Source of the DNA: a virus
Taxonomy: Duplodnaviria; Heunggongvirae; Uroviricota; Caudoviricetes
Strand: one strand, 5' to 3'
Length of the DNA: 12,310 bases
IMG/VR virus record: IMGVR_UViG_2913192161_000002
Coordinates: 1-12,310 of that record
A program made the position numbers and the translations under genes. Of the stretch, positions 33 through 654 are shown piece by piece. How positions within the stretch are numbered: the stretch's first letter is position 1; every line of letters starts with the position of its first letter. The notes beneath the pieces were generated by a model. It was not told the origin of the DNA and did not search any database. It was given only the letters and a program-made list of their open reading frames with translations.

Positions 33-359
33 TTACTCCTTCGAGCTACCAAATTTGTTACCGATTACTCGCATTGCAGCCCCACGAATAGCATCGACAC
101 CGATCAGCCCAACGCCGCCACCAATGGCAACAGAAAGTGATTTAGGCCATCCGACATACTCAAGAGCGGATGCAAAAGTCAGCGTCAGAGCGCCACAGAG
201 TAGAATTTCGAGTGTTTTTCGCTTCCAGCCGCCACCACCGCCAAAATAGGCAATACGTAAACCAGCCATAACAATCGACATAATCACTGCGCCCAGCGGT
301 GTGTCTCCACGCCACCAGCTCTGGACCAACTCCAGCCAGGTATTTGGGTTATGAGGCAT
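33..359 (-). CDS. Holin (lambda S-like, glycine-rich transmembrane segments, charged C-terminal tail)
   Basis: 108 aa ORF with hydrophobic Gly-rich stretches (AYFGGGGGW, AIGGGVGLIGVD) and a basic C-terminus, sitting immediately upstream of the endolysin start. AGGTGAGAG ribosome-binding site before the ATG at 359. Architecture resembles lambda S. Confidence 0.8.
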   Translation of the reverse strand: MPHNPNTWLELVQSWWRGDTPLGAVIMSIVMAGLRIAYFGGGGGWKRKTLEILLCGALTLTFASALEYVGWPKSLSVAIGGGVGLIGVDAIRGAAMRVIGNKFGSSKE

Positions 360-510
360 TTGTAGTTATCTCTCACCTCGCTGATACAGCAGGTGCAAAT
401 TGAGGGAACATCATGTACCGCAAATCAGAAGCGGAAACGTCAAAGAAGCCGAGCCAATGGATAACTGCGGGATAGACCAGACTCAACGAATCCCCAGGCC
501 CAGAAACGAC

Positions 511-537
511 AAAACCCGCTCGACGGCGGGTTTAAGC
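511..537 (-). terminator. Rho-independent terminator, candidate tR' of the late leader transcript
   Basis: On the minus strand a GC-rich hairpin CCCGC(cgtcga)GCGGG is followed by TTTTGTCGTTT. It lies about 150 nt upstream of the holin start and downstream of the candidate late promoter. Confidence 0.55.
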
Positions 538-599
538 TGTGTGGCGAAGTAACCACTCTTAACACAGTAACGCAATTTTTGCGGACCGCGATAATGTTT

Positions 600-608
600 T
601 TTATACCA
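600..608 (-). promoter_or_regulatory. Candidate Q-dependent late promoter pR' (extended -10, TGgTATAAA)
   Basis: Minus strand reads TTTGGTATAAAAAAC, giving a TG-extended -10 hexamer TATAAA about 65-90 nt upstream of the terminator at 511-537. No good -35. Placement is by analogy to lambda pR'-qut-tR'. Confidence 0.3.
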
Positions 609-654
609 AAAAAAGGTATTTTATGGAAAAAAATCAAGACATAGCGAGCAAAGA

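Follow-up and report, generated by a model that had tools for sequence, protein, structure and literature searches.

A conserved late control module and the antisense cassette that separates it from a QuuD/Q21-type Q gene

Gene order around the late control region

The window, by which we mean the whole 12,310-nt stretch of viral DNA analysed here, carries its late genes on the minus strand. The first late gene past the terminator described below encodes a class I holin, S (positions 33-359, minus strand; PF05106, E = 6e-25), and this gene is 94% identical at the DNA level to the holin gene of SfII. The antiterminator gene Q, which is of the QuuD/Q21-like kind, lies on the same strand at 2233-2598 (PF06530, E = 1e-52), with rusA, ybcO and ninB-like genes upstream of it. 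The Q product has 121 aa when counted from MRDIQ, the mechanical open reading frame (ORF) call reaching back to a TTG at 2613. It is 52% identical to K-12 QuuD and 29% identical over 79 aa to phage 21 Q (E = 9e-9), and comparison with the Q21 structures (PDB 6p18/6jnx) gave a match at E = 4e-4. Two terminator-like hairpins of the minus strand, at 2641-2621 and 2678-2661, stand between rusA and Q, directly upstream of Q; their position fits a dependence of Q expression on early antitermination.

Between the Q stop at 2233 and the region at 505-654 lies ~1.63 kb of oppositely oriented foreign DNA, so the geography given in a preliminary description of the window, with Q ending at 2233 and a foreign cassette filling a gap of ~1.6 kb before the late region, is correct. 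The cassette comprises three plus-strand genes (655-2209) and runs antisense to late transcription. Its first gene (655-1524) encodes a 289-aa protein that matches NCBIfam NF053583 (LAPAL_fam, E = 8e-60) and PADLOC PDC-S42 (E = 9e-33), and the 89-aa (1521-1790) and 140-aa (1787-2209) proteins encoded by the other two gave no family match. Both of the smaller proteins have hydrophobic N-terminal segments when judged by eye, which suggests that they are membrane partners of the LAPAL/PDC-S42 protein. The same cassette is also present in a Tatumella locus (L133).

The GTG start of the 289-aa gene at 655 agrees with the N-terminus, MKKTTSF, of a homologue. A short plus-strand ORF of 11 codons, running from ATG 623 to a TGA that ends at 658 and overlaps this GTG, had been pointed out earlier and is indeed present in the sequence. 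It is lineage-specific: the L133 copy of the cassette lacks it and instead has an AAGGG Shine-Dalgarno sequence before its GTG. In the window, where the GTG lacks a good Shine-Dalgarno sequence, the short ORF could allow translational coupling to this start. At the other end of the cassette, between its last position at 2209 and the Q stop at 2233, a plus-strand inverted repeat was found at 2191-2225 (AAACTGCCG...CGGCAGTTT with a 15-nt loop, then TTTCTATTCT). This repeat is likely the terminator of the cassette and an insulator against convergent transcription from Q; our terminator scan passed over it because of the size of its loop.

Separation of Q from the late promoter is the norm for this Q family. 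Both Q and the control block could be located in 166 loci; the two were adjacent in 35 of these and had 0.4-4 kb between them in the other 131, the quuD-nmpC-essD arrangement of K-12 included, in which the porin gene nmpC of DLP12 occupies the site between quuD and essD. The intervening ORFs, which form 77 clusters, were exclusively antisense to late transcription in 104 of the 131 separated loci. PADLOC matches were obtained for 3 of 10 other representative cargo proteins: PDC-M53A, PDC-S20 (a KAP-type NTPase) and HEC-04 (OLD-like). The interval from the stop codon of Q to the A-tract at the edge of the control block is a recombination and cargo hotspot that often holds defence candidates. 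Because Q acts in trans, the separation is without mechanistic consequence.

Conservation of the control block and the late promoter

Megablast searches against phage genomes showed that window 511-603 recurs beside this type of Q whatever follows. In the cassette-less Stx phage 1720a-02 the block adjoins the stop codon of Q, a TAA equivalent to window 603-601, and in SfII and cdtI other two-gene plus-strand cassettes fill the same gap. A scan of IMG/VR with the core GTTAAGAGTGGTTACTTCGCC returned 119 loci. Species-representative genomes, scanned with a seed consisting solely of a Q protein alignment, yielded 80 loci from Yersinia, Xenorhabdus, Serratia, Erwinia, Rouxiella, Citrobacter and others, and 59 of the 80 had the same architecture downstream of Q; Escherichia has this architecture too. 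With positions 380-2700 as the query, which covers the late block, the cassette and the Q gene, 3052 of 5426 complete E. coli genomes matched parts of it. The exact cassette occurred in 31 complete E. coli genomes, in most of which the match starts from the terminator's 3' edge at 511, and in other complete E. coli genomes the cassette site was occupied by a KAP NTPase, DUF6731 or different genes. On its minus strand, window 505-603 holds a genuine late control module, whose conservation with QuuD/Q21-type Q (PF06530) extends across Enterobacterales. The significance of the region comes from conservation only, since a generic promoter and terminator scan stayed at chance level (4 promoter-like hits against 4.2 expected and 5 terminator-like hits against 3.6).

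To locate the promoter within the block, 105 unique homologous sequences were aligned on the core and the bases were counted in each column. T-12 was conserved in 97% of the sequences and A-11 and T-7 in 100%, with the three positions between A-11 and T-7 variable, and this pattern is the signature of a sigma-70 -10 hexamer. Columns -12 and -11 lay outside every search pattern used to collect the homologues. The window has TACTGT at these positions (569-564, minus strand), from which a start at A557 is predicted. The extended -10 motif occurs once in the window, against 0.09 occurrences expected by chance. Further upstream, the alignment showed conservation of a CG at -26/-25 (97%), of an A/T run from -23 to -19 and of an A-tract from -45 to -39 (A-41, 92%). 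The A-tract falls where the proximal subsite of an UP element is located; in the window it reads AAAAAA (597-602, minus strand; -45 to -40) and lies at the cassette junction. The element class to which the window belongs has no recognisable -35 hexamer.

The same module is found between nmpC and essD in K-12 DLP12, where the hexamer TATGCT predicts a start at NC_000913.3 577229. A plus-strand start at U00096.2 576452 in the Cappable-seq table of Ettwiller et al. (2016) is the predicted K-12 base, and thus the base equivalent to A557. The shift of +777 between U00096.2 and NC_000913.3 was checked empirically with 8 local start sites; only at this offset were all 8 purines, and 6 of the 8 then had an nAnnnT hexamer at -12 to -7, so that the mapped start can be placed on the predicted base. 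The signal at this start is weak (relative read score 1.7 against a threshold of 1.5), and the start belongs to another element class (TTTACGTACGTAAA), in which a decent -35 hexamer is present. Two other placements of the -10 were tried and rejected: AAAAAT at 580-575 fits the K-12 start less well, and in a -17 register the window sequence, TGCGTT, is not -10-like. Most likely, therefore, the late promoter has its -10 hexamer TACTGT at 569-564 and starts transcription at 557.

The palindrome, the classes of Q and the leader RNA

In every locus the stretch immediately before the -10 hexamer contains a short palindrome and then an A/T run. In the window the palindrome is GCGGTCCGC (581-589, minus strand; -32 to -24), a putative Q-binding element, and A5 follows at 580-576. 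The palindromes fall into the classes GCGGTCCGC, GCGTACGC, TTTAC(G/A)(A/T)(T/A)CGTAAA, GTTATAAC, TTTCGT(A/T)ACGAAA, GCG(C/T)TACGC and GGAATTCC. The Q proteins were classed by alignment of the helix-turn-helix, since single-linkage clustering at 65% identity had merged two classes. At least six palindrome classes each went with one class of C-terminal Q helix-turn-helix, with no exceptions in 107 and then in 166 loci. The recognition-helix region of Q contains DEKLIRIEIQ where the palindrome is GCGGTCCGC, CSDGTIRKELQ where it is GCGTACGC, SD..G..LQKAEG where it is TTTAC...GTAAA, ISLNQVVIRLQ where it is GTTATAAC and CSEGKIRQ.LM where it is TTTCGTwACGAAA. The Q proteins of the TTTAC...GTAAA and GTTATAAC classes are almost identical in their N-terminal halves, and they differ both in the helix-turn-helix and in the palindrome. 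Different palindrome classes occurred with the same families of cargo and the same modules downstream, which indicates that recombination exchanges the flanking DNA but leaves the pairing of Q and palindrome intact; survival of the pairing through this exchange argues for function over simple linkage. These sequence comparisons make GCGGTCCGC the likely Q-binding element. We also noticed natural chimeric Q proteins (L006, L012 and L097 compared with L018 and L079), whose N-terminal halves are near-identical and whose C-terminal helix-turn-helix regions are different; the two types go with different palindromes, one with GTTATAAC and the other with TTTACAATCGTAAA.

Downstream of the predicted start, a terminator-like hairpin of the minus strand is formed by AAACCCGC/GCGGGTTT at 533-512 and followed by TGTCGTTTCT, and it occupies +25 to +46 when counted from A557. 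The whole intrinsic terminator, an analogue of tR', spans 505-533 (minus strand) and consists of an 8-bp stem (533-526/519-512), a 6-nt loop and then UUUUGUCGUUU; the hairpin and T-tract that had been described at 511-537 are thus in place. Initiation at A557 and release in the T-run would give a terminated leader of about 47-53 nt. The earlier proposal of a short terminated leader accordingly holds in substance and changes in scale, from a 6S analogue of ~90 nt to ~50 nt from start 557, as in phage 21. Of 107 unique homologous leaders, 84 have a hairpin with a perfect stem and a T-rich tail, ending between +42 and +61.

The 53-nt leader RNA folds as two hairpins (dG -19.6 kcal/mol, z-score -3.1). 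The 5' hairpin of the minimum-free-energy fold, GUGGU-N6-GCCAC (541-556, minus strand), pairs +2 to +6 with +13 to +17. Across the homologous leaders 85.9% of cells pair at these positions, against 22-62% in slid controls; the pair +5/+14 occurs as G-C, A-U or G-U, with 7 compensatory cases of A-U, and the G at +13 is invariant in the 105 unique sequences. The indication of a conserved paired 5' hairpin in the leader RNA is suggestive but modest, and such a hairpin could act as a stabilising 5' stem, as a pause hairpin or, at the DNA level, as an inverted repeat. A further motif, TAAGAGT (555-561, minus strand; -4 to +3), is 97-100% conserved and is a candidate sigma-dependent pause element by analogy with phage 21. 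The assignment is uncertain because the pause element of phage 21 lies at +2 to +8. Were AAGAGT to act as such an element, pausing would be expected near +12/+13, beside the invariant G+13.

A natural deletion variant of the leader was seen in a phage of the 1720a-02 type (L102), in which +14 is fused straight to the terminator stem (AGTGGTTACTTCGCCCGCGAGCGGGTTTTTTT) and the leader is ~25 nt shorter. Searches of 300-800 and 490-610 against Rfam 15 gave best scores of 13-19 bits, against gathering thresholds of 37-55. The sub-threshold matches to isrK, isrJ and P9 all rested on the terminator hairpin and were discarded. StxS was likewise rejected as a homologue of the leader, as it goes with a different type of Q and a leader of 258 nt. 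The Term-seq supplement of Adams et al. (2021) contained no 3' end near K-12 57727x-57728x, and it is uninformative for an RNA of 50 nt.

Promoter candidates for the cassette fall in the stretch of the late promoter and the palindrome. The best of them, GTAACG-17-GATAAT (567-595, plus strand), agrees with the consensus at 8 of 12 positions. Its GATAAT (590-595) is conserved in the Tatumella L133 copy of the cassette, its candidate -35 GTAACG (567-572) overlaps the late -10, and its 17-nt spacer covers the palindrome. Because only ~50 bp lie between the junction and GTG 655, any promoter of the cassette would need to overlap the late module. No plus-strand promoter was conserved across different cargos. 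The arrangement in the window makes candidate overlapping divergent promoters plausible, with mutual exclusion or with repression of the cassette by Q.

A probable Q-dependent late switch, competing readings and known systems

We consider it probable, at roughly 0.7, that window 505-603 is a Q-dependent late control module of a lambdoid E. coli prophage, with a phage 21-like layout and a start at A557. This reading builds on the established conservation, -10 signature, K-12 start site, terminator and covariation of Q with the element; from these we infer that Q binds the palindrome, that a pause element is present and that antitermination takes place. Sigma-70 RNA polymerase would start at A557 from a weak promoter, composed of the A-tract at 602-597 and TACTGT and having no good -35. 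When Q is absent, it would stop at the 533-512 hairpin and U-run and leave an RNA of ~50 nt with two hairpins. Once made from 2598-2233, Q would bind GCGGTCCGC at 589-581, where a -35 element would be, and would load onto polymerase paused just after initiation, with the pause arising via TAAGAGT (561-555) near G+13. The Q-modified polymerase would then pass the terminator and transcribe the holin gene and the other late genes. The cassette would be cargo that entered the recombination hotspot separating the stop codon of Q from the A-tract.

The composition of the locus is that of a Q cassette: a Q-family gene lies upstream on the same strand (PF06530, with homology to the Q21 structures), and a sigma-70 promoter with a close intrinsic terminator lies upstream of the lysis and late genes. 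The promoter does not stand immediately past Q, as ~1.63 kb of antisense cargo lies between; adjacency of Q and promoter is a matter of customary gene order, which the mechanism does not demand.

Several other readings were weighed against the Q-dependent module with its start at A557, and two of them concern where late transcription begins. The preliminary description had put the late promoter at about 600-608, which is some 40 bp away from the conserved -10 downstream at 569-564. The sequence that it named, TGgTATAAA at 608-600, is there, with five of the six -10 consensus positions and an upstream TG, and a start near 593 would give a leader of roughly 90 nt that includes the palindrome and conserved core and would be an analogue of the lambda 6S RNA. 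The 91-nt RNA from that start folds well (z-score -2.8), and the cassette junction is common to the 31 genomes with this cassette. A role as late promoter is nevertheless not borne out: the TATAAA has no T at -7 and no -35 hexamer, the hexamer is not conserved among homologous loci, the Tatumella locus with the same cassette (L133) included, and columns -48 to -43 are not conserved in the 105 sequences, unlike the A-tract at -45 to -39. Homology to cassette-less phages stops at 603-605, a boundary near this element, and the equivalent bases in those phages are the Q stop codon and an A-run. The mapped K-12 start, moreover, lies 36 nt further downstream than a start near 593. We therefore re-read 608-600 as the edge of the UP-element-like A-tract at the cassette junction, and initiation from it as unlikely. 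It is very unlikely, in turn, that the late and lysis genes are expressed mainly from some other promoter, either upstream or dependent on an alternative sigma factor (RpoE), with the block serving as an attenuator or terminator on which Q acts. DLP12 reportedly has an RpoE-dependent essD promoter. A strong K-12 Cappable-seq start (score 90) lies by nmpC, ~370 nt upstream of the conserved block; this plus-strand start (L123 4359, equal to NC_000913.3 576858) stands beside the nmpC start codon, points towards essD and the control block and is probably the published essD promoter. For regulation of the DLP12 lysis operon by Q and RpoE, PMC7918800 refers to Rueggeberg et al. (2013 and 2015), and a primer that PMC7918800 takes as position -121 places the +1 near this strong start. 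The upstream region in question, however, is specific to its cargo and absent from the window, and the invariant -10 signature and the mapped start both lie inside the conserved block. Known Q proteins, moreover, need a binding site and a sigma-dependent pause near the promoter in order to load.

The palindrome itself admits another explanation, according to which it is the operator of a different regulator or a part of the cassette promoter and matches the Q class by linkage only. Palindromes are typical of operators, this one overlaps the best plus-strand promoter candidate, and phage 21 Q uses direct repeats and no palindrome. Yet the palindrome is kept in loci that have no cassette, and its distance of 20 bp to the TAAG motif is that of QBEu in phage 21. 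Cargo and downstream modules recombine freely, and the palindrome still matches the Q helix-turn-helix class, chimeric Q proteins included. We regard this explanation as very unlikely. A bolder version of the Q-dependent module would have QuuD-type Q proteins act as symmetric dimers on palindromes of at least six interchangeable classes, with the junction as a hotspot for antisense defence cargo and with a cargo promoter that overlaps the Q site, such that Q binding turns the late genes on and the cargo off; taken as a whole, this version is speculative and rather improbable.

The window probably holds an ordinary and functionally important Q-antitermination late switch of the phage 21/DLP12 kind. 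What may be new is confined to the palindromic specificity classes and to the hotspot for cargo that lies between Q and the late promoter; in the accessible literature we found no cis-element, binding or transcription study of a QuuD-type Q. The map of the late promoter is corrected here for a class of prophages that is very common in E. coli, Shigella and other Enterobacterales. The proposed specificity classes of the Q site would be useful for predicting the cross-activation of lysis genes between prophages, and the prediction extends to the toxin genes of 1720a-02-type Stx phages. Antisense cargo, candidate anti-phage defence genes included, has besides often landed in the interval from Q to the late promoter.

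The closest comparison is with phage 21. In its annotated record (L204) the Q stop codon at 1632 is followed by the -35 TTGACA (1639-1644), QBEu/QBEd ATTGAGCA AATGAGCA (1647-1662), the -10 (1662-1667), the start site (1674), the sigma-dependent pause element TAAGCTG (1675-1681) and the terminator (1676-1723). With the start at 1674 and the terminator ending at 1723, or +50, the phage 21 leader is also ~50 nt long. The structural papers on Q21 place the C:G pairs of the QBE subsites at -21 and -13 and describe a -10-like pause element in the initially transcribed region, and this layout agrees with the phage 21 record. The window shares with phage 21 a homologous Q with a sigma-region-4-like helix-turn-helix, the order of the elements, a binding element, putative in the window, just upstream of the -10 and abutting it, and a terminator that ends ~50 nt from the start. 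The TAAGAGT by the window's start site resembles the TAAGCTG of phage 21, and the 20 bp between palindrome and TAAG equal the spacing between QBEu and the pause element. The two differ in that the window has a 9-bp palindrome, whereas phage 21 has two 8-bp direct repeats and two tandem Q protomers. The element classes seen (GCGGTCCGC, GCGTACGC, TTTACGTACGTAAA, GTTATAAC, TTTCGTAACGAAA, GCGTTACGC and GGAATTCC) are all palindromes. The window Q has 121 aa and Q21 has 162 aa; the window has an A-tract and no TTGACA -35, in contrast to phage 21; the TAAG motif occupies -4 to +3 in the window and +2 to +8 in phage 21; and the module is 1.6 kb away from Q in the window and 6 nt away in phage 21.

K-12 DLP12 has the same Q subfamily, core and terminator as the window, and oppositely oriented cargo likewise lies between its Q and the block. 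Its element, TTTACGTACGTAAA, differs in doubling as a good -35 hexamer, its cargo is different, and the regulatory region of that cargo is ~370 bp long compared with ~50 bp in the window. Phage PA-2 lc presumably belongs with the quuD-nmpC-essD arrangement of K-12 DLP12.

The same general scheme, in which a constitutive promoter gives a short terminated leader and Q-dependent readthrough leads to the lysis genes, is found in the PR'-6S-tR' unit of lambda and the PR'-StxS-tR' unit of Stx phages. The Q families of those units are unrelated to that of the window or only distantly related. The lambda leader, the 6S RNA, is 194 nt long, and the Stx-phage leader, which can be a stable RNA in lysogens, has 258 nt, compared with ~50 nt in the window. 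In the lambda and Stx units the cargo (stx genes and tRNAs) is found beyond tR' and shares its transcript with the late genes, whereas the cargo in the window lies upstream of the late promoter and is antisense to it.
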